DNA from: an uncultured Actinomycetes bacterium
GTDB lineage: Bacteria; Actinomycetota; Humimicrobiia; Humimicrobiales; Humimicrobiaceae
Reading direction: 5' to 3'
NCBI GenBank assembly: GCA_963847665.1
Contig: CAWKAO010000001.1
Coordinates: 120,131 to 184,130, forward strand
DNA: 64,000 nucleotides
A program made the translations under genes and the position numbers. Under the pieces are notes generated by a model. It saw only the letters and a list, made by a program, of their open reading frames with translations, did not search any database and had not been told where the DNA came from. Below are positions 21,719-59,930 of the stretch, in pieces. Each line of letters opens with the position of its first letter. Within the stretch, counting starts at the first letter, position 1.

Positions 21719-21827
21719 ATTCTTTTTCCTTATTTTGATAATCTAAATGTATCAAAAGAGGGCAAAATAAAAGATAATGGAAATAAAGAGATATTGATGG
21801 CCTTCCATTACGGGCAAAAAGACTAAT

Positions 21828-23297: not shown

Positions 23298-23307
23298 AAG
23301 GACTAAA

Positions 23308-24385: not shown

Positions 24386-24429
24386 ACCTTTCAAGATCAT
24401 CCGACTCCTGGTCTTACAAAAAAATTAAT

Positions 24430-25041
24430 ATGAAAGATAAAAAAAGAATAGCAGTATTTGCTTCAGGGTATGGCTCAAATCTTCAGGCAATCATCGATTA
24501 CTCACAAAAAAAAGATATAAGCGGTTCGATAGTCCTTGTCTTAAGCAACAATGCCGATTCCTATGCTTTGAAGAGAGCCGAAAAAAACTCCATAAGATCC
24601 GTTTGTATTGAGCCTGGAGGATTTAAAGACAGGGCAGCATTTGATGCTGAAATCCTAATGGTATTGAGTAAAGAAAAGATAGACCTGATAGTCCTTGCAG
24701 GTTATATGCTGCTTCTAGGAGAGGAAATAGTCGGAAATTATCAAAACAGGATATTGAATATACACCCGGCACTCTTACCTGCGTTTAAAGGTTTGCATGG
24801 AATAAAAGATGCTTATGATTATGGTGTCAGGGTCACGGGTGTGACTGTGCATTTTGTAGATAATGGACTTGACAGCGGTCCTATAATCTTTCAGCAGGCA
24901 GTGATCCTTGACCAGGATGACAGCCTTGAAATGATTGGAAAAAAGATCCATGAAGTGGAACATAAGGTCTACCCTGAAGCCATAAGACTTTTTTGTCAGG
25001 ACCGCCTGCAGATCAGGGGAAGAAAAGTCCTGATAAAATAA
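24430..25041 (+). CDS. purN: Phosphoribosylglycinamide formyltransferase
   Basis: ASGYGSNLQA, LAGYM, NIHPALLPAF.G, HFVD.GLDSGPII. Confidence 0.97.
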   Translation: MKDKKRIAVFASGYGSNLQAIIDYSQKKDISGSIVLVLSNNADSYALKRAEKNSIRSVCIEPGGFKDRAAFDAEILMVLSKEKIDLIVLAGYMLLLGEEIVGNYQNRILNIHPALLPAFKGLHGIKDAYDYGVRVTGVTVHFVDNGLDSGPIIFQQAVILDQDDSLEMIGKKIHEVEHKVYPEAIRLFCQDRLQIRGRKVLIK

Positions 25042-25118
25042 AACATTAAAAACTGCAGTTTGAAAAAAATATATGGTTTTTTAATTACAAAATAATTTTT
25101 TAAAGACAGGAGAAAAAA

Positions 25119-26825: not shown

Positions 26826-26851
26826 GATTTAAAAACTTGCATCTAAATAAA

Positions 26852-26890
26852 ACTGATCCCCGCCATCCTTTTTGGGATCAGGGGATCAGT
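26852..26890. terminator. Hairpin between convergent purH and lon
   Basis: ACTGATCCCC...GGGGATCAGT inverted repeat. Confidence 0.65.
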
Positions 26891-26943
26891 AATTATTTAT
26901 TTAACTCAGCTATTCACTTACATTTCATCTGTATTTGACTGGT

Positions 26944-29364
26944 TTAAGCTGTAAATGCTGATATTTTTTGCTCTTGACCGATTATATGTTTTTTTGCATT
27001 CTGAAATGGGTCTTTTTCAAGAGCGTTTCTTACAGCCTCGTCAATATTGTCTACAAAGACAAGCTTAAGTCCCTTAAGTATATTAGAAGGTATTTCTTCC
27101 AGGTCCTTCTTATTCTTTGCAGGAAGGATGACCAATCTAAGTCCAGCTCTTTTGGCTGCAAGAAGTTTTTCCTTCAGGCCACCGATAGGGAGGACCCTTC
27201 CTCTGAGAGTAATTTCGCCTGTCATACCTACATCCCTAAGGACTGGTATACCAGTCATTGCTGACAGGAGAGACGTAGTTATAGCTACTCCTGCAGACGG
27301 GCCGTCTTTTGGCACTGCTCCAGCTGGGACATGTATATGAGTATCAGATTTGCTGAACATGTTGTCATTTATACCAAATGCTCCAGCTTTCGAGTGTACA
27401 TAACTGATCGCTGCTTTCGCAGATTCCTGCATTACTTCTCCAAGATTACCTGTCAGTATCAGCTTGCCATTTCCCTTGTAATGAGTTGATTCTATTAATA
27501 TTATATCTCCACCCACTGGAGTATAGGCCAGTCCTGTCGAAACACCGATACTGTTTTTATCCTCAAGCTCACTGGGCTGTATTTTTGAGACACCCAGATA
27601 TTCATTTATTTTATTGCGAGTTATGATCTTAGGATATTTCTTATTTTCCAGTATTTCCCTGGCTACTTTTTTACAGATATTCCCGATCTCACGCTCAAGA
27701 TTCCTGACCCCTGCTTCTCTTGTATACTCCTCGATTAAAAGAAGGGTCGAATCATTCGAGAATTTAACATTATACTTATCGATTCCCTGTTCCTTCATCT
27801 GCTTTGGGATCAAAAATCTTTCAGCGATATGGATCTTTTCTTCTGAGCTGTACCCCGGTATCTCTATGACCTCCATCCTGTCGCGCAGTGCCGGGTGTAT
27901 CGTATCAAGTATATTTGCCGTTGTTATAAACATGACATTGGACAGGTCATAAGGAACTTCAAGATAATGGTCCCTGAAGGAATTGTTCTGTTCAGGATCC
28001 AGTACCTCAAGTAAGGCTGAAGAAGGGTCTCCCCTGTAATCGGCGCCTACCTTATCTATCTCATCAAGCATAAATACCGGATTGTTTGTCTTGACCTGTG
28101 AAAGACCCTGAATGACCCTTCCAGGTAATGCACCGACATATGTCCTTCGATGCCCCCTTATTTCTGCTTCATCCCTGATACCGCCAATAGACATCCTGAT
28201 AAACTTTCTACCCATAGCTTTTGCGATGGATTGCCCGAGGGATGTCTTACCTACACCGGGAGGTCCGACAAAGCAAAGGATAGGTCCTTTTGTCGTCTTT
28301 CCTTTCAATTTTCTTACTGCAAGGTAATCAAGGATATGTTCCTTGACTTTTTCAAGATCATAATGGTCATTATCCAGTACTTTCTTTGCTTTTTTGAGTT
28401 CGAGAACATCCTTTGTCCTTTCAGACCAGGGGACATCAAGCATCCAGTCTATGTAAGTCCTTATATATGAATATTCAGGTGACATACTGTTCATGGATTC
28501 AAGTCTTTTTATTTCCTTTTTTACTTTTTCCCTTGCATCTTTGGGCATTTTTTTCTTTAAGAGTTTCTTCTCAAGGTCATTAATAAGCTCAAAAGATTCA
28601 TCTGCTTCTCCCAGCTCTTCTTTGATAGCTTTTAATTGCTGCCTTAGGTAATACTCTCTCTGGGTTTTTCCGACTTCCTTCTGTACCTTGTCCCTTATTT
28701 GAGATTGTACCTCAAACTTACGTAACTCTTCGCTCAAGTATTCTGTAAGTTTTTTTAATCTGCTGATCACATTTACTTCCTCAAGTATTGACTGCTTCTG
28801 TATTGTTTCAGTTAAAAGGTAAGATGCAAAAAGATCAGCCTGTACTTCCGGTTTGGATATATTTGTAGCTGCCACTACAAAAGCTGTAGGAAGCGGAATA
28901 CCAAGCTGGATGAACTTCTCGACCTGTATCCTTATTGTAGTATTAAGATTCTCTGTTTCCTCTGTAATAGTAAAAGGTTCCTCTTCGACCACTTCAGTAA
29001 ATACCCTGAAATAAGGTTCGGTCTGGGTAAAATATTTTACTTTCACCCTGCTGATACCTTCGACAATACATTTCAATTCATCATGTCCAAGATTTACTAC
29101 CTGCTTTAAAACACAGGCCGTACCTATATCATAAAGATCCTCTCTTGAGATGTCTTCTTTGCCTTCTTCCCGCTGTGCCATAACGACTATTATCTTGTGC
29201 TCTTTTGAAGCATTATTTATAGCCTCTATAGATTTTTTCCGGCCTACTACAAGTGGAGTAGAAAGGAACGGAAATACCACGCTGTTTTTTAAAGCCAATA
29301 AAGGCAATTCCTGCGGTATTTTTATTGCAGTATTTTTTTCGTTTGTTTTGCTTTCTTCTGCCAT
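26944..29364 (-). CDS. lon: ATP-dependent Lon protease
   Basis: GPPGVGKTS, GHRRTYVGA, PKDGPSAG; ATG 29364 follows AGGAG. Confidence 0.97.
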   Translation of the reverse strand: MAEESKTNEKNTAIKIPQELPLLALKNSVVFPFLSTPLVVGRKKSIEAINNASKEHKIIVVMAQREEGKEDISREDLYDIGTACVLKQVVNLGHDELKCIVEGISRVKVKYFTQTEPYFRVFTEVVEEEPFTITEETENLNTTIRIQVEKFIQLGIPLPTAFVVAATNISKPEVQADLFASYLLTETIQKQSILEEVNVISRLKKLTEYLSEELRKFEVQSQIRDKVQKEVGKTQREYYLRQQLKAIKEELGEADESFELINDLEKKLLKKKMPKDAREKVKKEIKRLESMNSMSPEYSYIRTYIDWMLDVPWSERTKDVLELKKAKKVLDNDHYDLEKVKEHILDYLAVRKLKGKTTKGPILCFVGPPGVGKTSLGQSIAKAMGRKFIRMSIGGIRDEAEIRGHRRTYVGALPGRVIQGLSQVKTNNPVFMLDEIDKVGADYRGDPSSALLEVLDPEQNNSFRDHYLEVPYDLSNVMFITTANILDTIHPALRDRMEVIEIPGYSSEEKIHIAERFLIPKQMKEQGIDKYNVKFSNDSTLLLIEEYTREAGVRNLEREIGNICKKVAREILENKKYPKIITRNKINEYLGVSKIQPSELEDKNSIGVSTGLAYTPVGGDIILIESTHYKGNGKLILTGNLGEVMQESAKAAISYVHSKAGAFGINDNMFSKSDTHIHVPAGAVPKDGPSAGVAITTSLLSAMTGIPVLRDVGMTGEITLRGRVLPIGGLKEKLLAAKRAGLRLVILPAKNKKDLEEIPSNILKGLKLVFVDNIDEAVRNALEKDPFQNAKKHIIGQEQKISAFTA

Positions 29365-46313: not shown

Positions 46314-47588
46314 TCAGTTCTCCTGTTGAGGCATTTTTTCTATTGCTATTAGCCTCTCCATTATTGGCGGATGGGAGTAGATGATGTTTTTCAATAAAGA
46401 CCCTGGAGATACATTGGATAGATTGGTCACTGCGATATTCTGAAATATTTCAATCTGGGATTCTTTGTCTCCAGTCAATTCTATTGCTGTACTGTCTGCC
46501 TGTTTTTCAAACTGCCTGGATATAAGGTTTTGAAGAGGCATGCTTAAATAACTTATGAGGCTGAAAAGTATAAATAAAACGATTACAAGACGCACACTAT
46601 TTCCAAGGCCTGCAGTTGAAAGGAAAATGCTAAGAAAATAGGATATAAGTATCACACCTGCTGATCCGAAAAGTATACTCCACAGAATATGCCTGTACTT
46701 CCAGTGTCCTATTTCATGCGATATGACACTTAAGGTCTCATCTTCTGAGTGATTTTTTAACAGGTTGTCATATATGACTATTCTCTTTGTACTGCCGATT
46801 CCGGTAAAATAAGCATTTATCCTTGTAGTTTTATTGCTCGCATCTGCCACAAGTACCCTGTCTATCTCTATACCTGCTTTTTCAGTCAAAGCTTATGTAT
46901 CTTGTTGTTGAGACTCACGTTTTCCAGGGGTGTGAACTTATAGAAAAGAGGGTCTATTATAACCGGGAAAATAAAACTTGAGATTGCAATAAAAATAATA
47001 AAAATACCTGCAGTGATAGCCCACCAGTATTTGGATGTATATATCAAGCAAAATATAAATGAGAGTCAGTGCTGCAGTATTTATTACAAGTGAAATAGCC
47101 CTGTCTTTCAGTATGTCCAAAAACCAGGCGCTCAATGTCTGATTGGAAAGCCCAAAGTTATGATCTATTATAAAACCCCTGTAATACTGAAGAGGCAGTA
47201 GTATAAGAAACAATACGATATTAAAAACAGCAAATATCGCAACAGCTGTAAAAATAGGTATCCTGTTAATGAATAAGGAACTTCGCCAGAAGATCAATAA
47301 AACAGCACCAAAAAAAATCCAGGTCAGAAACCGTTCTGCTATTGATAATAACAAAACTGTTCTGTTGTATTGCGCAGATATTTCCAGGAAAGACCTTTCG
47401 AAATATTTATTTGCTGCATCATCCTGAGGCGGCTTTATCTGCATTGCGGCCACAAGCAAAATTATAAGCATTATTATACTTAACACAGCTATGGCTATAG
47501 AAACATTTATTGCCCATCCCGATCCAAACAAATGCATTTTTTTATCTTTTGTTTTTTTTAAATACTTTGAATCTTTTTTATTATACAT
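46314..47588 (-). pseudogene. M48 (Ste24-like) metalloprotease broken by two frameshifts
   Basis: FGLSNQT...W..D..K in the first ORF; YWWAI...FPVIIDPLFYKFTPLE in an intervening frame; NAYFTGIG..KRIV.YD.LL, HEIGHW, E..AD and SHPP in the last ORF. Confidence 0.8.
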
Positions 47589-47695
47589 CCTAATAGTTGA
47601 TTTTTTGTTTTTTATTCACCAAATCCTACTGATATATAATAACAGTACGCAGAAAAAAACTAAAAATAAGGTAAAAAATAATTATACATATATTA

Positions 47696-47724
47696 TTGAC
47701 AAATGATACTATTATAGTATCATT
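47696..47724 (+). promoter_or_regulatory. Promoter -35 overlapped by an 11-1-11 inverted repeat (candidate Rrf2 operator)
   Basis: TTGACA (47696-47701) followed by AATGATACTAT-T-ATAGTATCATT (47702-47724). Confidence 0.75.
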
Positions 47725-47814
47725 AAGAATATGTATGGATACGACCTGAAAAATAATAAGATCATTGATTCGGTTTGATCAAAAAAACTAATTCTGGTTG
47801 GAAGGAGGATAGAA

Positions 47815-48234
47815 TTGAAGCTTATAACAAGGGATATTGATTATGCGGTAAGGGCGCTTATCTTTATCGGAAATAACAATAAAGATAATTCTGACTCTAC
47901 TGCTGTTTCGATATCTGAGATCGTAGAAAAACTTGATGTCCCTAAACCTTTTATGAGAAAGATCCTCCAGGTGTTAAGCAGCAATGGGATATTGACTTCC
48001 CATAAAGGGAATAAAGGAGGTTTTAATCTTGCATTGAAACCAGAAGAAGTCTTTTTATATGATATTGTTGAGATATTTCAGGGCAAGTTCAGCCTTAATG
48101 ATTGTTTATTTAAAAAAAATATTTGTCCTGACAGGAGCAGGTGCCTGCTTAAAAAAAAGATAGACTCTATCCAGGAGCAGGTTGAGGATGAATTAAAAAA
48201 AATAAGTCTTAAAAGTTTAATGGAAGGAGAATAA
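47815..48234 (+). CDS. Rrf2 family transcriptional regulator
   Basis: DYAVRAL, G.KGGF.LA..PEE, three Cys (CLFKKNICPDRSRC). Confidence 0.93.
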   Translation: MKLITRDIDYAVRALIFIGNNNKDNSDSTAVSISEIVEKLDVPKPFMRKILQVLSSNGILTSHKGNKGGFNLALKPEEVFLYDIVEIFQGKFSLNDCLFKKNICPDRSRCLLKKKIDSIQEQVEDELKKISLKSLMEGE

Positions 48235-48235
48235 G

Positions 48236-49165
48236 ATGGGTATAAGAAATATTATAGAAATAGATGAAGATAAATGTACTGGATGCGGGCAGTGTATCCC
48301 GAATTGCCCTGAAGGAGCCCTTCAGGTCATTGATGATAAAGCAAGATTGATAAGCGATCTATTTTGCGATGGACTTGGCGCATGCATCGGGGAATGTCCT
48401 GAAGGAGCCATTAATATAATAGAAAGGGAGGCCCAGCCATATGATGAAGAAAAAGTCATGGAAAATATAGTAAAACAGGGGGAAAACGTTATAATCGCAC
48501 ATCTGGAACATCTGAAGCATCATAATGAGACTGTTCTTCTTGAAGAAGCAGAAAAATATCTTGAAAAACATAATATAAAAATAACTGTAAAAACAGGTCT
48601 AGACCACAGTGAATGTGATCATTCCGGTGACCTGCCATGCGGTTGTCCCGGTTCAGCAGTAATGGATCTCAGGGAAGAAGAGAGCAGGTCGAGTATCAAT
48701 AAAACTGAAAGCGGGAAGACATTAAAAGAAGATCCAAAAGCAGCAAAGATACAGGAGCTCTTAAATCAGCTGACCGAGCGCAGATCAAGTCTGAAGCAAT
48801 GGCCGGTGCAGATAATGCTTGTCCCGCCTAATGCACCCTATTTTGAAGGAGCTGACATTTTAATAGCTGCTGATTGTGTACCATTTGCATACCCTGGTTT
48901 TCATGAAGACCTTCTGGAGGGAAAAATACTCCTTGTAGGCTGTCCCAAACTTGACGACAGTGAGATATATGTAAAGAAGATAACAGAGATATTAAAATTA
49001 AATGATATAAGATCTATAACTGTGGCGCATATGGAGGTACCGTGCTGTTCGGGTATGCTCAGAATTGTTAAGCAGGCTATAACTTCTTCAGCAAAACAAA
49101 TTCCATTTGACTCTATAGAAATAGGCATCAAGGGTGACATATTATCAAGAAATAAAGTAGCCTAG
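48236..49165 (+). CDS. 4Fe-4S ferredoxin domain iron-sulfur protein
   Basis: CTGCGQCIPNCP, CDGLGACIGECP, QWPVQ, GCPKLD, MEVPCC. Confidence 0.9.
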   Translation: MGIRNIIEIDEDKCTGCGQCIPNCPEGALQVIDDKARLISDLFCDGLGACIGECPEGAINIIEREAQPYDEEKVMENIVKQGENVIIAHLEHLKHHNETVLLEEAEKYLEKHNIKITVKTGLDHSECDHSGDLPCGCPGSAVMDLREEESRSSINKTESGKTLKEDPKAAKIQELLNQLTERRSSLKQWPVQIMLVPPNAPYFEGADILIAADCVPFAYPGFHEDLLEGKILLVGCPKLDDSEIYVKKITEILKLNDIRSITVAHMEVPCCSGMLRIVKQAITSSAKQIPFDSIEIGIKGDILSRNKVA

Positions 49166-49438
49166 TAACCTGAACTTTATTATTGGGGGATAGGTGTATC
49201 AATTTCCAGATGCATTAAAAAATGAGGTTATGCCTCCTTATTATTTTTAATAGTCAAATATTTTTGTTGTGTTTCTATACAGTTTTTCGATTTTAGTTTT
49301 AAAAATTTTTAATTTAAACACTTTATATGATATCCTTATTTTATAATAAATCACATCATTAATAAAAATTCAATAGACCTTGAGGATCAAATAAATTCTT
49401 TAAAACTTTTAAAAATAATTTTGAAAGAGGGATTTAAA

Positions 49439-50536
49439 ATGGATAAACCAAGATTTGCAGTCATTGGCGCTGGACATGGCGGAAAGGCCATGGCGGCGCA
49501 TCTTGCAATAAAAGGATTTTCTGTAAAGCTATATAACAGGACACTTAGTAAGATAGAACCTATTATCAAGATGCATGGGATCGAGGTCGAAGGAGAAGTA
49601 ACAGGTTTCGGAAAAATAGAAATTGCTACTGATAATATAGGCGATGTAGTAAAGGGATCAGACGTAATCATGGTCTGTGTTCCAGCTTTCGCACATGCAT
49701 CTATTGCTGAAAGGTGCGCCCCTTATCTTGAAGATGGACAGATAGTGATGTTGAACCCTGGAAGGACGTGCGGCGCTCTTGAGTTTATAAACATTCTGAG
49801 GGAGAGAGGCAATAAAAAGGACTTGATGATTGCAGAGGCCCAGACTTTTATATATGCCAGCAGGGGAATGGGACCTGCATCTGTGAAGATATTCAGGACA
49901 AAACAGGCAATACCAGTCGCAGTTATACCTGCTGTTAAGACCGAGGAGGCACTTGATAAGATAAACCAGGCTTACCCAGAGTTTATTTCTGCGACCAGTG
50001 TTATCGAGACAAGTTTCAATAACATCGGTGCGGTCTTTCATCCTGCTATTACTATTCTCAATGCCAGCAGGATAGAATCTACCATGGGTAACTTCCAGTT
50101 CTATATTGAAGGCGTAACTTCTTCTGTCGCCAGAGTACTTGAAATAGTAGACAATGAGAGAGTGGAAGTCGCAAATAAGCTTAGATGCAAGAATATCCTT
50201 ACAGCTCTGGACTGGCTGACAATGGCATATAATGTCGTAGAGGACAATCTGTTTGACGGGATACACAGTAACCCCGGTTATTACGGGATAATGGCTCCCA
50301 AGACTTCCAATGTCCGTTATATAACTGAAGATGTGCCTATGAGCCTTGTACCTATTTCTGAGATAGGGCGGGTCTTTGGAGTAGATACTCCTGTTACTGA
50401 CTCACTGATACATCTTGCGAATGTGATTTTCAGGAAGGATTTTAGAAAGTCCGGAAGAAATATCACAAATCTTCGTCTGGAAAACCTGACAATCGATGAA
50501 ATAAGAAATCTGTTTATTGAAGGCAAGATAAAGTGA
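49439..50536 (+). CDS. NAD/NADP octopine/nopaline (opine) dehydrogenase family protein
   Basis: GAGHGGKAMA, LNPGRTCGALE, NIGAVFHP, FQFYIEG, D.ER, RYITEDVP.SLVP. Confidence 0.9.
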   Translation: MDKPRFAVIGAGHGGKAMAAHLAIKGFSVKLYNRTLSKIEPIIKMHGIEVEGEVTGFGKIEIATDNIGDVVKGSDVIMVCVPAFAHASIAERCAPYLEDGQIVMLNPGRTCGALEFINILRERGNKKDLMIAEAQTFIYASRGMGPASVKIFRTKQAIPVAVIPAVKTEEALDKINQAYPEFISATSVIETSFNNIGAVFHPAITILNASRIESTMGNFQFYIEGVTSSVARVLEIVDNERVEVANKLRCKNILTALDWLTMAYNVVEDNLFDGIHSNPGYYGIMAPKTSNVRYITEDVPMSLVPISEIGRVFGVDTPVTDSLIHLANVIFRKDFRKSGRNITNLRLENLTIDEIRNLFIEGKIK

Positions 50537-50616
50537 TCATTTTTTAGCTTTTTTATAAGAAAAATGAAAATGTCCTGATGTATTATATCTAAAGAGACCG
50601 AACCCTGGAGGTTTGT

Positions 50617-52248
50617 ATGAAAAAGATCCTTGGAGCCGCGATCGGCAGCTGTGTGCACGTTGCCGGGGTGATGAATTTTTTAAACATCAGCAGGTTTTTT
50701 GGATTTGAAACACGATTTATCGGTTCTGCAATAGATATATCTGATCTGAAAAAAGAAATCGAGAAAAATAGACCTGACATTGTCGGTATAAGTTACAGAC
50801 TTACTCCTGAAAGTGCAGTAAAACTTTTCAGGGAATTTAAAAGGTCTGTTGCTGATGAATATAAAAATATATCTTTTATTCTTGGGACCACCGGTTCAGT
50901 AGCTGACCTGCTTGAGAACAGAGGACTTTTAGATATTTTTGACAAGGTCTTTACCGGTGGGGAAAGCAGGGAAGAGATCGCAGAATACCTTCAGGTAAAA
51001 AAAATAGACGGTTTAAAGGATAAAATTCCTCCCCAGGAGCTCATCAAAAGAATCGCTTACAGTAAACCTTATCCTTTATTGAGGCACCACTTTGGAAGGC
51101 CAACTGTAAAAGAGACTGTGGAGGGGATAAAGAAAATAGCAGAAAGCATGCTTATAGATGTGGTCTCGCTTGGCCCGGACCAGAATGCTCAGGAGTTTTT
51201 CTTTAAACCTGAAAAAATGGACAGGATGCAGGATGGAGCAGGTGGTGTGCCGGTTAGAAGCGCTGCAGACCTAAAGATCCTTTTTGATGCTACAAGGACG
51301 GGTAATTATCCCATGATGAGATGTTATAGTGGTACGAATGATATTATAAAGTTTGCTGCTATCCTTCTTGATTCAATTCACAATGCATGGTGTGCAGTAC
51401 CATTATGCTGGTACAACGAGATCGACAATAGAAGCCATAGGAAACTGATCGACGCAATAAGGGAAAATAAGGAAGTAATGAAATGGCATGCAGAAAGAGG
51501 GGTTCCGGTCGAAGTCAACGAGTCGCATCACTGGAGCCTTAGGTATGCATCCGATGCCATAGCTGTTGCTTCTGCATATCTGGCAGCATATAATGCCAAG
51601 AAAATGGGTGTTAGGGATTATGTATCTCAGTATATGTTTAATACTCCACCAGAGACTTCTTTCACCATGGACCTTGCAAAAATGCTTGCAAAAATAGAAC
51701 TGATAGAATCTCTTCATGATGATGATTTTGTTTCAATAAGGGAGACAAGGTCAGGTCTATACAGCATGCCAGTCGACTTTAATCAGGGTAAAGGGCAGCT
51801 TGCATCATCTACTTTGCTCCAGATGCAGGTCAAGCCTTCAATAGTCCATGTCGTCGCTTACTGTGAATCCAGTTATGCTGCAAAACCTGATGATATTATA
51901 GAAAGCTGTCAGATAGTAAAAAAAGTGATAGAGAACTGCATCGAAGGATGTCCTGATATGAGATCAGACCGCGATGTCATAAAAAGAAAAGATACTCTTC
52001 TGAGCGAAGCAGGCATGATAATAAAGGCAATAAAAGATCTTGATACCAGTCACAGGTTTGAAGACCCACTGATAGAGCCAGATATAATAGGAGCTGCAAT
52101 TCAAAAGGGTATCCTTGACGCCCCCCATCTTGAAGGTGTAAAAGGTGCTGCCGGTAAAATAAAGACGATGTTTTTTGATGGAGCAAACCTGCCGGTAGAT
52201 GATTGCGGAAATATGATATCAGAATCTGAAAGATTAAATGATCTTTAA
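50617..52248 (+). CDS. Cobalamin-binding domain protein (putative B12-dependent enzyme of unknown function)
   Basis: N-terminal Rossmann B12 domain with CVHVAG (DxHxxG-like) and VGISY; long conserved-looking C-terminal domain (RHHFGRP, GNYP..RCYSGT, NESHHW); no radical SAM CxxxCxxC motif. Confidence 0.8.
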   Translation: MKKILGAAIGSCVHVAGVMNFLNISRFFGFETRFIGSAIDISDLKKEIEKNRPDIVGISYRLTPESAVKLFREFKRSVADEYKNISFILGTTGSVADLLENRGLLDIFDKVFTGGESREEIAEYLQVKKIDGLKDKIPPQELIKRIAYSKPYPLLRHHFGRPTVKETVEGIKKIAESMLIDVVSLGPDQNAQEFFFKPEKMDRMQDGAGGVPVRSAADLKILFDATRTGNYPMMRCYSGTNDIIKFAAILLDSIHNAWCAVPLCWYNEIDNRSHRKLIDAIRENKEVMKWHAERGVPVEVNESHHWSLRYASDAIAVASAYLAAYNAKKMGVRDYVSQYMFNTPPETSFTMDLAKMLAKIELIESLHDDDFVSIRETRSGLYSMPVDFNQGKGQLASSTLLQMQVKPSIVHVVAYCESSYAAKPDDIIESCQIVKKVIENCIEGCPDMRSDRDVIKRKDTLLSEAGMIIKAIKDLDTSHRFEDPLIEPDIIGAAIQKGILDAPHLEGVKGAAGKIKTMFFDGANLPVDDCGNMISESERLNDL

Positions 52249-52359
52249 GATCTTCTGCTCATTCTTTTTTTCTTATCAGTGCTTGACTTTTTATAGACAT
52301 CAAATATATTTATCCGTATATCAAAAACAATATTAGCTTCGAAGAAAGAATGGTTTAAA

Positions 52360-52884
52360 TTGGAAACATTATGGTGGGTACTTGCAATATTTTTTGGAAG
52401 AATTGTTGATGTTGCGCTGGGTACAATAAGAATAAATTTTATTGTCAGGCACAAGAAGTTTTTTGCAGCTCTAGTAGGTTTTGTAGAGGTCACTATATTT
52501 ATATATGTCGTATCAAGAGTAATTCAGGACCTGAGTGGGAATTTTTTTGGTATCCTTGCCTATGGAGCAGGTTTCGCTGCAGGTACGATTGTAGGGATGA
52601 CCATATCAGATAAGCTTTCACAGGATCTCATAAGTATAAACATAATCTCAAGACAGAATAGCACCGAGATCGAAAAACTCCTGAGAGATGCGGGATTTGG
52701 TGCTACATGTTATAACGGTGTTGGAAAATATGGGGAGGTCAAAATAATAAATATCGTTTGCAGGCAAAAATTTGTCCCAAAACTGAGCAGAATAGTATTT
52801 GAAGAGGACCCAACTGCTTTTTTAAGTACACATGTTGTAGGGACTCACAGAGGCGGGTTCTTATTTGGAAGCAAAAAAAAGTGA
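52360..52884 (+). CDS. UPF0316/DUF5698 membrane protein
   Basis: RIVDVALGTIR, GFVEV, AYGAGFAAG..VG, LRDAGFGAT. Confidence 0.85.
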   Translation: METLWWVLAIFFGRIVDVALGTIRINFIVRHKKFFAALVGFVEVTIFIYVVSRVIQDLSGNFFGILAYGAGFAAGTIVGMTISDKLSQDLISINIISRQNSTEIEKLLRDAGFGATCYNGVGKYGEVKIINIVCRQKFVPKLSRIVFEEDPTAFLSTHVVGTHRGGFLFGSKKK

Positions 52885-52950
52885 CCATTATAAAAACCGA
52901 TGAGTTCAGGCGAACTGAATTCCAGCAGACAATCTATTTTAATATAAGTA

Positions 52951-54507
52951 TTAATTAAAGTTTCTTGTAAAAGAAAGAAAGTCATAAAAATCTACATCAG
53001 CAAAAAATTCTCTGAATACCTTATAATAATAATATTCTTCTTTGTTTCTTAGTATAAAACCATTTTCAAGGGATTTATTATTTTCATATTCATTTTCGCT
53101 TACTTCTATATCTATTTTTTCTGTGAGTGTATTGAGTATGCCTGAACCCTCCCAGAACTTATCCTTGGGCCGCCATACTATAGAAGCAGGGAGATATTTT
53201 TCGGCTACTTTTCTTAAAATGTCCTTTGTAAGCTGTTTATCATAATTTAATTTAAGTTCCGGTGGTATCCTCAGTACATATTCCATCAATATCTCGTCAA
53301 GCATGGGCAATTTTGTATTTACACCATTTACATTTGATACCCTGTCGACTCTCTGCAGCGCTGTGTTATGAAGGCTTTTAATGGCTTTTATTAGTTCAGT
53401 TTGTATTTCCTGCTGTGATTCTAGGTCCAGAAAGTAATTATATCCCGCAAAGATCTCATCTCCTCCTTCTCCAGAAAAGATCACATCTGATTTTGAGGAA
53501 AGCTTGGACACTATCATGTTGCCAAGCGTACTCCTGACCAAAGGTGCGTCAAAAGACTCGAGAGCATATATAGTCTCCGGAATAGAAGAGAAAAGGATGT
53601 CTCTGTTTAATTCATACTCAGCATGAATTGTACCGAGGTGTTTTGCGACAAGTCTAGCAGCTTCTAGATCAGGTGATCCCTTATAACCTACAGAAAATGT
53701 AAAAATGTCACTGCTGAATTCCTTTAAGGCTCCTGCAATTACACTCGAGTCCAGCCCTCCGCTTAACCATGTTCCCAGTTTGACTTTTTTATTGCCGGCA
53801 GGAATGCGTTTTTCAATGGATTTGAGTAATAATTCATTGATCCTATCTGTAATGTTATCTATATTTATATCTTTTATAAGGCCTTCCGAAAGGATCCCGT
53901 CAACATAATTGTCGAAAGTCATGTCTTTAAATACTTTAGGAGTATCAAGGTTTTTAATATAGTGACCAGGTTCTAGTATGAAGATCTTCCCTCCAAGACC
54001 TATTAGTGATTTTACTTCTGAAGCAAAATAAAGACGGTCCTTATTATTGAAAGTATAATATAGGGGTTTTCTTCCAAGGAAATCTCGTAATAAATATACA
54101 TCTTTAGCCTGATCGTAAAATACTAAAGCAAATTGTCCATTAAGTTTGCTAATAGTATTTTTATTAAAATCTGTAAGTATCAAAGACAGCCCTTTTCTTT
54201 TTAGGCTATCATATTCAGCAATACTGTAAGTATCACTGATGATCTTTGCAATATTATCGATCTTACCATCAAGAAAATGATCGGATATCTGATTGTCATC
54301 ATCATTTATTTGCCCATTTGCTGTTTCCCTTTTAGTGATACCAATAACTGTACTATATTTTTTATTACTGATTTCTATTATTTCATTAGGCTCAGAACCT
54401 CTATAGCTGATCTTATTGAGCATAAAAACTACCTGGTCTTTTAATTTACTTTGATATAGTTCTTTTTTATTCTCTGATCTGGATATTACTCCTGCTAATC
54501 CTGCCAA
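52951..54507 (-). CDS. Asparagine synthetase-like amide ligase lacking the N-terminal catalytic Cys
   Basis: RD.LGRKPLYY, FASEVKSL, LSGGLDSS, SGEGGDEIFAGY, LQRVDR, WRPK; starts MAGLAGV (TTG 54507 after AGAGGAG) instead of MCGI.G. Confidence 0.88.
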   Translation of the reverse strand: MAGLAGVISRSENKKELYQSKLKDQVVFMLNKISYRGSEPNEIIEISNKKYSTVIGITKRETANGQINDDDNQISDHFLDGKIDNIAKIISDTYSIAEYDSLKRKGLSLILTDFNKNTISKLNGQFALVFYDQAKDVYLLRDFLGRKPLYYTFNNKDRLYFASEVKSLIGLGGKIFILEPGHYIKNLDTPKVFKDMTFDNYVDGILSEGLIKDINIDNITDRINELLLKSIEKRIPAGNKKVKLGTWLSGGLDSSVIAGALKEFSSDIFTFSVGYKGSPDLEAARLVAKHLGTIHAEYELNRDILFSSIPETIYALESFDAPLVRSTLGNMIVSKLSSKSDVIFSGEGGDEIFAGYNYFLDLESQQEIQTELIKAIKSLHNTALQRVDRVSNVNGVNTKLPMLDEILMEYVLRIPPELKLNYDKQLTKDILRKVAEKYLPASIVWRPKDKFWEGSGILNTLTEKIDIEVSENEYENNKSLENGFILRNKEEYYYYKVFREFFADVDFYDFLSFTRNFN

Positions 54508-54677
54508 AACTATCAACTCCTCTTTGATTTTTATTAAACCTTAACATATAAACTGCATATTTTGAAATCAGCGATAGCTTTTTAACAACAATTTAAAAAA
54601 TATTTTAAATATTAGTTCAAATTGTTTATGATATTTTTAGATAAGATTATTATTGATGCAAGGAGGTAGGATCATCT

Positions 54678-55550
54678 ATGGCGGATACACAAAATATCAA
54701 TATTGATTCGCAAACAATAGTAGAAAGCTTCAGAAATAACTGGATTACTATTGCTGCTGTGGCTTTTGCAGTAATAGTAATAATACTGGTAATAAAATTT
54801 ATCTCAAGAAGATTAAAAAAAGTAATAGAGAAAAAAATAGGGGATGATAGGATCGAAGTAAGAAAAAGGTCTTTCACTTTTAATAGTGTTGTCTCTAATT
54901 TAATAATCTTAGCCAGTTTTTTTGCTGGTATCCTGATAATTATGGATCAGCTTAGCATCCCTATACTTCCTATCATAACCGGTGCTGGTATACTGGGAGT
55001 GATAATAGGGCTTGGCGCCCAGAGCCTCATCAAGGATCTGATAAACGGGTCATTTATTCTATTTGAGCAGTGGTATCAGGTAAACGACATAATAACCATA
55101 GGAGATATTACCGGGACTGTAGAAAGATTCAGCCTGAGGACGACTGTAATAAGAGATATTGAAGGTACTGTCCACTTCATACCCAATTCAGAAATAAAAA
55201 CACTTGGTAACAGGACCCAGGTATGGACAAAAGCAGTCGTAAAAATAGGCGTTCATTATAAGGAAAAAATCGATAGAGTAGTTGATGTTCTTCAAGAGGT
55301 CTTTGATGAATTTATGGACGATAGAAAATATAGGAAGCTGATACTGGAACCACCTAAAATACTTGGTGACGGAGGTGTAAGCGAGCTGGGTGATTCTGCA
55401 GTTACATTTACTATAGTATGCAAGGTCAAACCACCTGAGCAGTGGACTATAGAAAGGCAGCTCAGAAAGAGAATAAAAGATAAATTTGACGAAGTAGGTA
55501 TAGAAATACCCTATCCCTGCAGGAACCTATATATGAGAAATGATCAATAG
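54678..55550 (+). CDS. mscS: Small-conductance mechanosensitive channel (MscS family)
   Basis: GLGAQSLIKDLING, GTVE..SLRTT.IRD..G.VHFIPNS, GIEIPYP. Confidence 0.92.
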   Translation: MADTQNINIDSQTIVESFRNNWITIAAVAFAVIVIILVIKFISRRLKKVIEKKIGDDRIEVRKRSFTFNSVVSNLIILASFFAGILIIMDQLSIPILPIITGAGILGVIIGLGAQSLIKDLINGSFILFEQWYQVNDIITIGDITGTVERFSLRTTVIRDIEGTVHFIPNSEIKTLGNRTQVWTKAVVKIGVHYKEKIDRVVDVLQEVFDEFMDDRKYRKLILEPPKILGDGGVSELGDSAVTFTIVCKVKPPEQWTIERQLRKRIKDKFDEVGIEIPYPCRNLYMRNDQ

Positions 55551-56345
55551 AAACCTGATGACTTCTGCAGGATTTTCTAAATAATAATCAGCGATGGTTT
55601 TTTCTGTCTCAATATTATCTGTGACCTTTATATTGATCCCGGTCCTGTTACCGGAAAAGAGGTCTTCATCTGTTACATCATCTCCAATGCAGATGGCAAG
55701 GACAGATCCTTTAGAAGTATTTTTCTTATCAACTCTGAGGAATTTTTCTAAAACAATTCCTTTATTTATATCTTCAGGCATTATTTCAATGACTTTTTTC
55801 ATTTTTATAAACCTGAAAATGTATTGCTTTCTAAGTTTTTTTAAATGTTCGCCAAGTTCTTCGATCCTTGGAATATCTTTTTTTTCTACCTGTCTATAAT
55901 GGATCGCAAGTGAATGAGGTTTATCTTCGATGATAATATTTTTTATATCCTTTATCTGCTCTATTACTATACTTTTTAGAGCTTCAGGTATACCACTGCC
56001 ATAAGTCTTATCACAGGACGCCTGAGGGTTTTTCAAAAGGCTGGAGTTTTTTAATTCTGCGCCATGGCTTCCTGCCATGATAATATTTGTGGGCTCCAGG
56101 GCCCCGGTTATTTTTTCAAGGTCATCAAGAGACCGGCCTGAGATTATTATAATCCTGAATCTGCTATTATTTAAGTCTTTGAATAACCTTATAAGCTCGC
56201 TGCCTGGTAATGCATCACCTGGTCTTTCGACGATGTCAGTGAGGGTCCCATCGTAATCAAGAAACAAGTAGACTTTGCGAGATCTTTCAATCCTTTTTTT
56301 TATATCTTCGATCTCTGTAAAAGCATTTTTTAGGATTTTCATCAT
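55527..56345 (-). CDS. otsB: Trehalose-6-phosphate phosphatase
   Basis: FLDYDGTL, ISGR, GSHGAE, HYR, NKG, IGDDVTDEDLF. Confidence 0.93.
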   Translation of the reverse strand: MMKILKNAFTEIEDIKKRIERSRKVYLFLDYDGTLTDIVERPGDALPGSELIRLFKDLNNSRFRIIIISGRSLDDLEKITGALEPTNIIMAGSHGAELKNSSLLKNPQASCDKTYGSGIPEALKSIVIEQIKDIKNIIIEDKPHSLAIHYRQVEKKDIPRIEELGEHLKKLRKQYIFRFIKMKKVIEIMPEDINKGIVLEKFLRVDKKNTSKGSVLAICIGDDVTDEDLFSGNRTGINIKVTDNIETEKTIADYYLENPAEVIRFLLIISHI

Positions 56346-56385
56346 TTATAATTGGAAATATAGACTTAACTGATGAAGAATTTCA

Positions 56386-57831
56386 TTATTGTGGTGTTTG
56401 AACGAAATAATTTAAAAAGCTTAAACACCATTTGTATACATCATTTTCTTTTATTATTTTCTGTAGAGCTCTAATATTGGATCTTTTTTCTTCTGCATCC
56501 ATCTTAAGTGCAAGATATATTTTATCTGCTATATCTTCGGTATCATAAGGGTTTACCATTGCCGAGTGTTCCCTTAACTCATCAGCGCAACCAGCAAATT
56601 CGCTTAATATAAGAACACCATTTAAATCGTTTTTACAGGTGACATATTCTTTTGCAATAAGGTTCATGCCGTCTCTTAGAGGGGTTACAAGGCAGACATC
56701 TGCTGATGCGTAAAAAGCTGAAAGTTTTTCCCGGTTTAATGATTTGTAAAGATACACAATAGGGGTCCATACCTCTTCAGCAAACCTCCCATTGATCTTT
56801 CCGATAAGCTCATCAATCTCATTTTTGAAACTGATATATTCACGTATTTTTGTCCTGCTTGGAACAGAGACCTGGATAAATACCACCCGTTTCCTGTATT
56901 CAGGATACTTTTCAAAAAACCGCTCGATCGAACAGAGTCTTTCTTTTATTCCTTTTGTATAATCCAGCCGTTCAACGCTAAGGACTATTTTTTTATCGAT
57001 TGTGTTCTTTCTTATACTGCTCAGGCTTCTATTTGAAGCCGCTCCGCTGGATATTTTTTTAAACTGTTCGTAATCTATACTTATGGGAAAATGCCATACT
57101 TTTACAGTCCTTGAATTATATAATACTGTAGATCTCTGCATATCTACTTCTGCCTTCAAAAGTTTTTTACAGGAGATCAAAAAATTGTCTGAATCATTTT
57201 CAGTCTGAAAGCCTACAAGATCACAACCCAGCATTCCTTTTAGCATATCTTTATGCCATGGAAGAGCCCTGAAAGTCTCGTAATTTGGAAAGGGAATATG
57301 ATTGAAAAAAGCTATCCTGAGGTCTTTGTTTTTTGTCCTTAACATTTCAGGGACCAGCATAAGATGGTAATCATGTATCCATATCAGTTCATCTCCCTTT
57401 ATTTCTTCGAGGACCGCTTTTGCATATTTTTTATTGGCAGAAAAGTAAGAATCCCAGTAATTATGATCAAAATGAGTCTGGAATAAAAAACCATGGAAAA
57501 GTGGCCAGAGGGTTCTATTGGTAAAGCCGTGGTAAAAGAGATTTATATCGTTTTCGCTTAGATTTACAAATTTTATCTGGTAGTCTCCCGGGCTATCGAC
57601 AGGTATTTTAGTACTGGTATCCAGAAATCTTGTTTTTTTAGAAAGACCACTCCATCCTATCCATACCCCGCCTTTTAATGTCATTATTGGATCAAGGGCC
57701 GTTACCAGGCCGCCAACACTTCTTTTATAACTGATCCCTTCTTTTGTCCTGTAAAAATTAAAGGGGACCCTGTTTGAGACTATTACCAATTTTTCTCTGG
57801 GTACCAGTTTTAAAAATTCTTCTTTTTGCAT
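56386..57831 (-). CDS. otsA: Trehalose-6-phosphate synthase
   Basis: VSNRVP, GGLVTAL, WPLFH, WIHDYHL, HIPFP, ERLDYTKG, DGMNLIAKEY, LSEFAG. Confidence 0.95.
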   Translation of the reverse strand: MQKEEFLKLVPREKLVIVSNRVPFNFYRTKEGISYKRSVGGLVTALDPIMTLKGGVWIGWSGLSKKTRFLDTSTKIPVDSPGDYQIKFVNLSENDINLFYHGFTNRTLWPLFHGFLFQTHFDHNYWDSYFSANKKYAKAVLEEIKGDELIWIHDYHLMLVPEMLRTKNKDLRIAFFNHIPFPNYETFRALPWHKDMLKGMLGCDLVGFQTENDSDNFLISCKKLLKAEVDMQRSTVLYNSRTVKVWHFPISIDYEQFKKISSGAASNRSLSSIRKNTIDKKIVLSVERLDYTKGIKERLCSIERFFEKYPEYRKRVVFIQVSVPSRTKIREYISFKNEIDELIGKINGRFAEEVWTPIVYLYKSLNREKLSAFYASADVCLVTPLRDGMNLIAKEYVTCKNDLNGVLILSEFAGCADELREHSAMVNPYDTEDIADKIYLALKMDAEEKRSNIRALQKIIKENDVYKWCLSFLNYFVQTPQ

Positions 57832-58031: not shown

Positions 58032-58679
58032 ATGACAGAATTTGAATTTTACGACTACATTACTATCATAAGTCCCACAGGGCTTAGGGCTTCCAATCTT
58101 CGGGAGTTTTTATCGATTATCGAAGAATCAGAAGACAATGTCCTATTCCACCATATGTTTCAGGCGCAATTGAAATACCATTCAAGGATACTGAATTACA
58201 ACGGGGATTTTGCAAACTGGGCTGCGGACTCACTTGAAGACTATGCCCTTGCAGAAAAACTTGGTAACTTTAATCCCTATGATTATTCAACCATAGCTGA
58301 GGCAAAGGACTACCTTGTGGAGATAATAGAAGAACATATGTGGGACCTCCCAAATATCCCCTGGACCAGGCCCGGGTTAGAATTTTACTTCTCATATTCG
58401 ACTTCAATTATAATGCCTTCTGGAATAAAAGTAGCAAACATAAAAGAGCTCAAGGATGCCTTAAAGAATATAAGTATTAATTCATTTTACTACCATTTTT
58501 GTGAAACAAGAAAAATTAAAAAAGAGAAGATGCACGATGATTTCTCTACCTGGATGGATGAGAACTTTGACTTAAAGGAACTTGTTAAAAGTTTAAGGGA
58601 TATAGACTTTTATTTTTTCAGTCTGGATGAGAGCAGGAAAAAAATAATTAGATTATTAAGGAATGAATTAGCAAAGTAG
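58032..58679 (+). CDS. DUF5752 family protein (TreT-associated)
   Basis: Duplicated module (LFHH / FYYH; DFANW / DFSTW); directly upstream of treT. Confidence 0.78.
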   Translation: MTEFEFYDYITIISPTGLRASNLREFLSIIEESEDNVLFHHMFQAQLKYHSRILNYNGDFANWAADSLEDYALAEKLGNFNPYDYSTIAEAKDYLVEIIEEHMWDLPNIPWTRPGLEFYFSYSTSIIMPSGIKVANIKELKDALKNISINSFYYHFCETRKIKKEKMHDDFSTWMDENFDLKELVKSLRDIDFYFFSLDESRKKIIRLLRNELAK

Positions 58680-58682
58680 AAC

Positions 58683-59930
58683 ATGCAAAACAATATAAGT
58701 ATCAATGATTATAAAGATGTAGTAGGAGAAAGATACATCCAACAGCTCAGGAATCTGGCAAAGGTCTCCCGTGATAAAAAGGTCATCATGGTAAATTCTA
58801 CAAAACTTGGTGGTGGAGTCGCAGAGATCCTTCACAGGCTAGTACCTTTATTAAATGAACTTGGTATATATTGTGAATGGAAAGTAATAAATGGTGACGA
58901 GAAGTTTTTTAAGATAACAAAGAATATGCATAATGCCCTGCAGGGAAATAAGGTATGTTTTTCACCTGATGACCTGCAATATTATCTCGAAGTAAACATG
59001 CAAAACTCCAGGGACCTCGATCTGGATGCAGATATAGTAGTAATACATGACCCTCAACCTCTCCCACTGTTAAAATTCTATGATAAGAAGAGCTCACGAT
59101 GGGCATGGCGCTGCCACATCGATATGTCTAAACCGGATATCACATTGTGGAAACATCTTAAGAAATATCTTAATCCATATGATGCAAGTATCTTTTCAAT
59201 AGCAAAATTCTCAAGGAAACTGCCACATCCACAATTTTTGATACTCCCTTCCATTGATCCTCTAAGTGATAAAAATCGCGAGGTGGACGAGCAGAAAATA
59301 GAAGCAATATTAAAGAGATTTAAAATAGAGCATGATAAACCCATTATTTTACAGGTCTCAAGATTTGACAGGTTCAAAGACCCTGTTGGGGTCATCAAGG
59401 CATACAGGCTCGTTAAGAATGAGATCGATTGCCAGCTGATTCTTGCAGGGGGGACCGCCACAGATGACCCCGAAGGCTTAGAAGTGCTGGAGGAGGTAAA
59501 GGCTGAGGCTGGAAATGATCCTGATGTCCACATCCTTATGCTTGAAGCGAACAGTGATATTGAAATAAATGCACTGCAGAGGGCTGCAGATGTAGTCATC
59601 CAGAAATCGACTAAAGAAGGATTCGGGCTTGTTGTCACGGAGGCACTATGGAAAGAAAAGCCTGTTATCGGTGGGGCAGTCGGTGGCATAACTACCCAGA
59701 TAAGGAATTACTATGACGGTTTTTTAGTCCATTCCATCGAAGGCGCCGCATACCGGATAAGATACCTTTTAAACAGACCTCACATGAGCAGTATAATGGG
59801 CCGTCAGGCCAAAAAATTTACTCTTGAAAATTTTCTTATAACGAGACATTTAAGGGATTATCTAAGCCTTTTTATATGCATGTATAACCAGGGCAAGAAT
59901 ATAATCAATGTGAAAGATACTGTATCATAA
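58683..59930 (+). CDS. treT: Trehalose synthase TreT-type glycosyltransferase
   Basis: NSTKLGGGVAEIL, HNALQG, IHDPQP, WRCHID, QVSRFDRFKDP, QKSTKEGFGL. Confidence 0.9.
   Translation: MQNNISINDYKDVVGERYIQQLRNLAKVSRDKKVIMVNSTKLGGGVAEILHRLVPLLNELGIYCEWKVINGDEKFFKITKNMHNALQGNKVCFSPDDLQYYLEVNMQNSRDLDLDADIVVIHDPQPLPLLKFYDKKSSRWAWRCHIDMSKPDITLWKHLKKYLNPYDASIFSIAKFSRKLPHPQFLILPSIDPLSDKNREVDEQKIEAILKRFKIEHDKPIILQVSRFDRFKDPVGVIKAYRLVKNEIDCQLILAGGTATDDPEGLEVLEEVKAEAGNDPDVHILMLEANSDIEINALQRAADVVIQKSTKEGFGLVVTEALWKEKPVIGGAVGGITTQIRNYYDGFLVHSIEGAAYRIRYLLNRPHMSSIMGRQAKKFTLENFLITRHLRDYLSLFICMYNQGKNIINVKDTVS

Follow-up and report, generated by a model that had tools for sequence, protein, structure and literature searches.

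A B12-dependent protein family encoded next to opine dehydrogenases has been predicted before by comparative genomics (Zhang, Rodionov, Gelfand and Gladyshev, BMC Genomics 2009; PMC2667541). In that article, the novel family occurred in 11 genomes, always beside a pfam02317 octopine/nopaline dehydrogenase gene and in several organisms with a D-Ala-D-Ala ligase or an asparagine synthase nearby, and the fold of its large domain was left unassigned. The same family in the same neighborhood was identified at positions 49439..54507 of a 64,000-nucleotide stretch (hereafter the window; contig CAWKAO010000001.1) from an uncultured Actinomycetes bacterium of the Humimicrobiaceae. A first-pass annotation of the window had regarded the gene set as undescribed; the set had already been noted by Zhang et al. 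(2009), and the claim held in so far as no paper characterizing the pair or assigning it a reaction was found in the literature searched, with subscription journals outside the scope of the search. Beyond the 2009 prediction, the present analysis adds a GlmE-like barrel, a Cys-His motif, the Cys-less state of an AsnB relative, and riboswitch control. The core of the locus is, as judged from sequence and structural modeling, a two-enzyme module of an NAD(P)H-dependent opine dehydrogenase (ODH) resembling N-(1-D-carboxyethyl)-L-norvaline dehydrogenase (CENDH) and a single-chain carbon-skeleton mutase of the adenosylcobalamin type.

The described system most similar to the B12 protein is glutamate mutase GlmS/GlmE (EC 5.4.99.1; Clostridium cochlearium, structures 1cb7 and 6h9e), which shares with the window protein a Rossmann B12 domain with a His ligand and the GlmE TIM barrel. 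Glutamate mutase is built from two subunits whereas the window protein is one chain of 543 aa (50617-52248, + strand) with the B12 domain at its N terminus; the motif is DxHxxG in the former and CxHxxG in the latter; and in place of the GlmL and methylaspartase partners of glutamate mutase the window protein is paired with an opine dehydrogenase. The cobalamin-binding Rossmann domain (residues 1-125, 50617..50991) matched PF02310 B12-binding over residues 3-118 with E 2.4e-7 and 31.1 bits, slightly below the 32.1 cut-off. Residues 12-17 read CVHVAG (C12-x-H14-x-x-G17) in place of the canonical DxHxxG, as the first-pass annotation had noted, and in profile alignment they fell on the DxHxxG of solved corrinoid proteins such as GDLHDIG of 4jgi; the motif thus retains its His and Gly but has Cys instead of Asp, and the canonical form as such is lost. 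The CxHxxG form was carried by 116 of 119 close homologues and by 18 of 20 homologues in the diverse full-length set. The translation of the B12 protein contains no radical SAM motif (CxxxCxxC), also in line with that annotation.

The large domain (residues ~150-543, 51064..52248, + strand) was assigned by structural model, Foldseek, and hhalign. The AlphaFold model, for which 26 diverse homologues were used (pLDDT 92, pTM 0.81), gave as top Foldseek matches the glutamate mutase E chains 1cb7_B (E 3.7e-17, TMq 0.60) and 6h9e_B, followed by ornithine 4,5-aminomutase, lysine 5,6-aminomutase, and methylmalonyl-CoA mutases, so that among the GlmE, OraE, and KamD barrels put forward earlier for comparison GlmE was the best and the aminomutases came next. 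Genuine GlmE was present in 6 of 120 further genomes of the same class, and five sequences from glmL-glmE-methylaspartase operons were taken for profile comparison. The alignment of the B12-protein family with these five (hhalign, 93%, E 3e-7) placed residues 152-535 on GlmE 60-438, with GlmE D89/D96, G124, and P145 corresponding to D181/D188, G210, and P232 of the window protein. Seven of 26 family members also weakly matched PF06368 (Met_asp_mut_E); the window protein itself had no match to this model at E<=1, and PF06368 scans for GlmE in five module-carrying genomes returned only the B12-protein family itself, weakly. NCBIfam held no model for the B12 protein, and searches of solved-structure sequences with the single protein or the family profile returned only B12-domain matches. 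Since sequence searches recognize the B12 domain alone, the barrel was seen only by fold and profile-profile comparison. From the GlmE fold found by Foldseek and the homology to GlmE along the whole barrel, the protein is predicted to be a single-chain GlmS-GlmE-like mutase rather than a corrinoid methyl carrier.

The family is large: of 8000 candidates that were scored, 7665 were homologues at E<=1e-3. A paralogous sister clade (~595-636 aa) has a homologous barrel and keeps the canonical DxHxxG as DPHTxG or DAHTLG, and three of its representatives are fused to the GlmL/MutL reactivase domain PF13941. Because of this clade with DxHxxG and GlmL fusions, the whole superfamily is placed among the radical mutases, and the barrel together with the GlmL-fused paralogues agrees with the earlier suggestion of a 1,2-rearrangement type of B12 enzyme. 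Sister-clade members comprise proteins P0160-P0261, P0156, P0158, and P0161. Two further fusions were observed in the mutase-like proteins, a GshB/RimK-type ATP-grasp tail in P0133 (863 aa) and a tail weakly matching Peptidase_M15_3 in P0144 (732 aa). To our knowledge, the reactions established for B12-dependent radical isomerases number only about a dozen.

A B12 protein that is not a mutase at all, acting as a corrinoid methyl carrier or a sensor or having lost cobalamin binding, would agree with the change of the motif Asp to Cys, with the PF02310 score slightly under its cut-off, and with the GlmL-like reactivase (PF13941) not found in the window's genome, which is 92% complete. Such a protein is nevertheless very improbable given the motif His and Gly kept in 116 of 119 close homologues, the ~390-residue GlmE-like barrel homologous over its whole length, a domain of a kind that methyl carriers do not have, and the sister clades with DxHxxG and GlmL fusions; the plain methyl carrier that the first-pass annotation had named as its refuting case was not borne out. 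A CobA/BtuR-type adenosyltransferase was identified in the window's genome (209.8 bits) and a PduO-type adenosyltransferase was not found there; adenosylcobalamin would be the cofactor form of the mutase-like protein.

The comparison with glutamate mutase also bears on the substrate. GlmE R66, R100, R149, and E171, the residues with which that enzyme binds its substrate, align in hhalign with H158, Q192, Y237, and C259 of the B12 protein, a mapping made at 17% identity in which small shifts are possible. The three arginines are invariant in the five GlmE sequences, and position 259 is C, S, A, or G across the B12-protein family; a literature search for published roles of the GlmE residues found nothing relevant. 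Positions that are invariant or nearly so in the family include R156, H158, Q192, R214, R235, Y237, D270, R272, E299, and R309, among others. Because the substrate-binding residues of GlmE are not kept, the substrate of the B12 protein probably differs from plain glutamate and is likely a polycarboxylate, and the small residue at the E171 position may allow the amino group to carry a substituent.

The second enzyme of the core, the ODH (365 aa, 49439..50536, + strand, within the ORF 49421-50536), likely starts at ATG 49439 with the ribosome-binding site GAAAGAGGGA ahead of it. It matched Octopine_DH PF02317 with E 7.6e-46 and 156.3 bits (cut-off 30), carries the N-terminal Rossmann motif GAGHGG (GxGxxG type), and aligned at full length with 1bg6 (E 1.4e-76, residues 4-357), the CENDH of Arthrobacter sp. 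1C. Residues H201, R293, and D298 were invariant across 28 homologues and presumably correspond to the active-site His, Arg, and Asp of opine dehydrogenases. With the two-domain layout of 1bg6 shared and these positions kept, the protein is by its sequence closely related, over its full length, to a genuine opine dehydrogenase. CENDH and the marine octopine dehydrogenases have no described tie to a B12 mutase gene, whereas the window ODH gene has one. The spacer between the two genes (50537..50616, + strand) measures the 80 nt reported in the first-pass annotation, contains a GGAGG ribosome-binding site, and has no predicted terminator. A complex prediction for the ODH and the mutase-like protein scored 0.00, with controls not run, and is evidence neither way.

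Linkage of the two genes was assessed in 80 related loci taken from genome contigs, and an ODH gene, whether full, edge-cut, or internally deleted, adjoined the mutase gene in 78 of them. The adjacent ODH was of full length in 72 loci (70 upstream, 2 downstream), truncated at the end of a contig in 5, and internally deleted in 1, and it was not found in 2 loci (L025 and L028) in which the mutase gene was intact. The pair occurred in metagenome-assembled genomes (MAGs) or isolates of Actinomycetota, Bacillota, Bacteroidota, Ignavibacteriota, Asgard archaea (Thorarchaeota), Bathyarchaeia, and others. By record title, cultured organisms with the module include Caldanaerobacter subterraneus, Thermoanaerobacter thermocopriae, Tepidanaerobacter, Rosettibacter/Melioribacter, and Maledivibacter halophilus. 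The adjacency of ODH and B12 genes is more than chance. In an Actinomycetota MAG (L016:4636-5200), the ODH is reduced to residues 1-32 and 207-363.

All ORFs within ~7 kb of the pair were clustered over 81 loci and, lineage-specific synteny aside (for example dnaE and his genes in Actinomycetota), only the AsnB family and Ddl-like ATP-grasp ligases recurred beside the pair across phyla. AsnB-family genes were present in 14/81 loci, in 13 of them directly after the pair in the order ODH-B12-AsnB-like and in several phyla, and Ddl-like ligases in 12/81 loci, 7 of them directly adjacent and on the same strand; the two never occurred together (0/81). Five Ddl-like ligases were scanned, four scoring 142-199 bits and the fifth 93.5, all below the 243 cut-off. 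In two Bacillota MAGs (L079:964-7168 and L063), genes for an M14 carboxypeptidase, a gamma-glutamyltranspeptidase, and a beta-lactamase-fold protein lie ahead of the Ddl-like-ODH-mutase row. The co-occurrence of the three families proposed in the first-pass annotation thus stood for ODH and B12, whose linkage is almost universal, and in part for AsnB, which follows the pair in those 13 loci but is optional, an orthologue of the window's gene being present in 9/24 genomes of its family.

In the window, this third gene is convergent with the pair (52951..54507, - strand, 518 aa, within the ORF 52951-54516) and codes for a Cys-less amide synthetase related to asparagine synthetase. Its start is most likely the second TTG, at 54507 and 9 nt past GAGGAG, which coincides with the boundary given in the first-pass annotation. 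Since translation from this start begins MAGLAGV, Ala2 occupies the position of the AsnB Cys nucleophile, and the annotation as a Cys-less AsnB homologue was upheld. The protein matched Asn_synthase PF00733 (E 5.9e-56), with LSGGLDSS aligned to the SGGLDS pyrophosphatase loop of 1ct9, and stayed below the cut-offs of NF006949 (323.7 bits, cut-off 499) and TIGR01536 (228.3, cut-off 267.1); relatives carry the NCBI label 'asparagine synthase-related protein'. E. coli AsnB (1ct9) is the closest solved relative, with the loop in common and its Cys nucleophile replaced by Ala2 in the window protein. The synthetase domain is far nearer to AsnB (1ct9, E 6.4e-52) than to CarA (1q15, E 4.4e-12) or beta-lactam synthetase (1jgt, E 2.2e-11), which disfavors the lactam product entertained earlier. 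Because Ala2 replaces the Cys nucleophile, glutamine is excluded as nitrogen donor by the usual mechanism. An analogy for AsnB-type amidation in a solute pathway is offered by the N-acetylglutaminylglutamine amide enzyme (TIGR03104), in which an AsnB homologue presumably amidates the carboxylate of a solute.

Loss of the nucleophile extends beyond the window. At this position the best 120 homologues have 77 Ser, 22 Ala, and one Cys, with a second Cys candidate (MCGFAGV) further into the sequence, and the operon-linked copies, ~450 aa long, mostly start MAG, MSG, or MTG, the Caldanaerobacter operon copy having Ala at the Cys position. Within the window's family, 22 of 24 genomes yielded the mutase and the 9 already mentioned a Cys-less AsnB orthologue, in every case with Ala, Ser, or Gly in place of the Cys; G001 is the sole family genome with the orthologue on the contig of the mutase, convergent as in the window. 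A metagenome scan with the single protein gave two loci, of which L106 carries B12, UPF0316, and convergent AsnB-relative genes with 81%, 72%, and 60% identity to the window and L105 is a further ODH-B12-AsnB-like row. A search of 200 other Bacteroidia genomes found no truncated AsnB relative and no mutase. A maximum likelihood tree of 29 AsnB sequences contained four well-supported groups joined by a node that lacked resolution: the window's Actinomycetota clade, a Chloroflexi-type Ser clade, a canonical Cys clade that includes the Thermoanaerobacteraceae operon copies, and a truncated operon clade. The spread of module-linked AsnB genes over at least three clades means that they were recruited repeatedly, with Cys lost more than once. 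A single orthologous group for all module-linked AsnB relatives was rejected, as the tree gives no support for one origin.

It is unlikely, though compatible with the biosynthetic route favored below, that the ODH-mutase pair alone acts together and that the AsnB relative (e.g., as an ammonia-dependent asparagine synthetase) and the UPF0316 protein are unrelated to it. The AsnB gene runs convergently with another gene between it and the pair, lies on another contig in 8/9 family genomes, and has no orthologue in 13/22 mutase-bearing family genomes; its synthetase domain is closest to AsnB, and it is the only Asn_synthase-type hit in the window's genome, where neither AsnA nor a canonical AsnB was found. 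On the other side, an AsnB-family gene directly follows the mutase gene in 13/81 loci of several phyla, the layout of the window recurs in G001 and L106 at ~60% protein identity, and in eight genomes of the family no AsnB-type hit was obtained. In addition, neither asparaginyl-tRNA synthetase (AsnRS) above cut-off nor GatB (PF02934, TIGR00133) was found in the window's genome; genes of the Asn-tRNA route may lie in the missing part, and with no AsnRS found above cut-off, free asparagine may be unneeded for translation.

A regulatory link was identified in the Bacillota. Nineteen related loci, picked for long leaders or short length, were scanned, and 11 of them, all from Bacillota, carry the cyclic di-AMP (c-di-AMP) riboswitch RF00379 (69-109 bits) ahead of the module, at a distance of 13-284 nt from its first gene; owing to this selection, the count is no frequency. 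In two of the 11, the riboswitch precedes the Ddl-like gene and covers the row Ddl-ODH-B12. The main text of a paper on a Na+ riboswitch (PMC9337991) names neither opines, cobalamin, nor a mutase. The window's genome encodes a DAC-domain c-di-AMP synthase. Riboswitches of this type turn genes on at low c-di-AMP, a state tied to the demand for potassium or osmolytes. Because they precede the module in Bacillota, a role in osmotic or potassium stress is supported, and the compatible-solute idea of the first-pass annotation gains indirect support; its original ground, the mscS, ots, and treT neighbors, was not conserved elsewhere.

Taken together, we tentatively favor, at slightly less than an even chance, a biosynthetic route in which opine condensation, a glutamate-mutase-type shift, and an amidation limited to some lineages yield a soluble stress solute or potassium counter-ion. 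The ODH would reductively join an amino acid and a 2-oxo acid to an N-(carboxyalkyl) amino acid with an arm derived from glutamate or 2-oxoglutarate. The mutase would then perform a 1,2 carbon shift of the glutamate mutase type on this secondary-amine polycarboxylate, giving a methyl-branched, aspartate-like arm; the two steps may also occur in the reverse order. In some lineages, including that of the window, an ATP-dependent amide-forming enzyme, either the AsnB relative without the glutamine-hydrolyzing Cys or a Ddl-like ATP-grasp ligase, would cap a carboxylate with ammonia or an amine as nitrogen donor. Cells under osmotic or potassium stress would thereby gain a small solute of high solubility or a potassium counter-ion. 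Biosynthesis is favored as the direction because ATP-consuming ligases lie in the operon.

Opine dehydrogenases work in both directions, and the mutases known for glutamate, lysine, and ornithine act in fermentations, so the pair could also be imagined in a catabolic module in which the mutase linearizes or branches the skeleton of an amino acid or opine-like compound and the ODH oxidatively cleaves the C-N bond, sending the 2-oxo acid into fermentation. Such a module would suit the 8-9 Tissierellia-type loci in which the pair follows genes for a 2-oxoacid:ferredoxin oxidoreductase, a phosphotransacylase, and a protein of the acetate/butyrate kinase family. This synteny is, however, limited to one lineage, ATP-dependent amide ligases are in the operon at 20/81 loci, no uptake transporter or binding protein recurs beside the pair among the neighbor clusters of the 81 loci, and control by c-di-AMP riboswitches is typical of ion and osmolyte homeostasis genes; a catabolic function is accordingly given a low probability.

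The same riboswitches also control cell-wall genes, and the product might be a building block of the cell envelope or of a peptide, i.e., an unusual D-configured or branched amino-dicarboxylate that is ligated or amidated by the Ddl-like or AsnB-like enzyme. The partner ligases are Ddl-like (93.5-199 bits, below the 243 cut-off), AsnB relatives amidate the diaminopimelate of peptidoglycan in some bacteria, opines of the CENDH type have a D-alanine-like center, and genes for D,D-carboxypeptidase, LytR, M14 peptidase, gamma-glutamyltranspeptidase, and beta-lactamase-fold proteins lie near some loci. These neighbors are limited to single lineages with 2-3 loci each, the pair is also present in Asgard and Bathyarchaeia MAGs, which are without peptidoglycan, and no Mur-type genes recurred in the neighbor clusters of the 81 loci, which makes an envelope role quite improbable.

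Several observations nevertheless weigh against the biosynthetic solute route. The AsnB relative is present in just 9/24 family genomes and, in 8 of the 9, on a contig other than that of the mutase; the tree keeps the window's AsnB clade separate from the operon-linked truncated clade, and the Thermoanaerobacter operon copy is a canonical Cys-bearing AsnB (642 bits). As the only Asn_synthase-type hit of its genome, the AsnB relative may instead have a housekeeping role. The Tissierellia loci would also fit catabolism, and no riboswitch was found in the module leader of the window (Rfam, gathering score, and E<=1 for 47000-55000). The genes mscS, ots, and treT are not conserved beside the module, with MscS in 3/81 loci and ots/treT in the window only. 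The GlmL-like reactivase that was not found in the 92% complete genome, the low identity behind the GlmE residue mapping, and the selected riboswitch sample count on the same side.

In its fullest form the proposal is doubtful, though a serious possibility: a new class of adenosylcobalamin mutase with a Cys-His lower-ligand dyad would act on a secondary-amine opine and, together with its obligate ODH and an optional glutamine-independent AsnB-type or ATP-grasp ligase, make methyl-branched opines or opine amides as osmolytes or potassium counter-ions at falling c-di-AMP, in a wide range of anaerobic bacteria and in some archaea. Such an enzyme would count as a variant among the B12 mutases. Solving the chemistry of the family would add a new B12 reaction, could reveal a role for the Cys beside the cobalt-binding His, and could identify a stress metabolite tied to c-di-AMP signaling. 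The contribution of the window lies in an AsnB partner without the glutamine-using Cys, in the recurrent loss of this residue in separate module-linked clades, and in an adenosyltransferase in the same genome.

The remaining genes of the locus show lineage-specific linkage. All components named in the first-pass annotation (ODH, B12 protein, UPF0316, and convergent AsnB relative) were found in place, and the UPF0316 membrane protein (DUF5698 + DUF2179 in Pfam, 52360..52884, + strand) has a promoter-like site ahead of its gene at 52283-52310 in a sequence scan. The UPF0316 gene follows the B12 gene in 6/81 loci, all from close Actinomycetota, and in L106; it is a lineage-specific neighbor and may be an operon member, its linkage is local only, and its place in the gene set originally proposed is thus confined to the nearest Actinomycetota. 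In the 66 nt separating the UPF0316 gene from that of the AsnB relative, no terminator was found beyond a small hairpin no better than shuffled sequence (z -0.83). Upstream, Pfam identified an Rrf2 regulator and a 309-aa ferredoxin-domain protein (47815..49165, + strand). These two genes were considered as part of the module and rejected, with a terminator-like hairpin (49224-49236, sequence scan) and 256 nt before the ODH; the ferredoxin-domain protein is kept upstream in 3/81 loci only.

Downstream of the AsnB relative, Pfam placed mscS (54678-55550, + strand), otsB and otsA (55527-57831, - strand), and DUF5752 with treT (58032-59930, + strand), and two trehalose routes, otsA/otsB and DUF5752 + TreT, thus adjoin directly after mscS. 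In the Bacteroidales loci, the neighbors include a ClC channel with CBS domains, a CitMHS-family permease, DUF389, MarC, and a two-component system. The first-pass annotation had held a staphylopine-type locus to be unlikely, and neither a nicotianamine-synthase-like gene nor a metal ABC transporter was found among the 17 ORFs at 43.6-59.9 kb or among the recurrent neighbor clusters of the related loci. No Rfam family matched the window at gathering score, nor positions 47000-55000 at E<=1. A search for sequencing runs containing this DNA listed none from RNA, and each DNA run listed had a share of 0.20 or less. Outside the locus, an M48 peptidase is encoded as two ORFs 48 nt apart (46314-47588, - strand), with Peptidase_M48_N at 46938-47588 and Peptidase_M48 at 46314-46889; this may be a split or frameshifted gene, and both parts were also matched in L002 and L003. 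Finally, G+C content was 0.39-0.43 at positions 18001-28000 compared to ~0.35 in the rest of the window.

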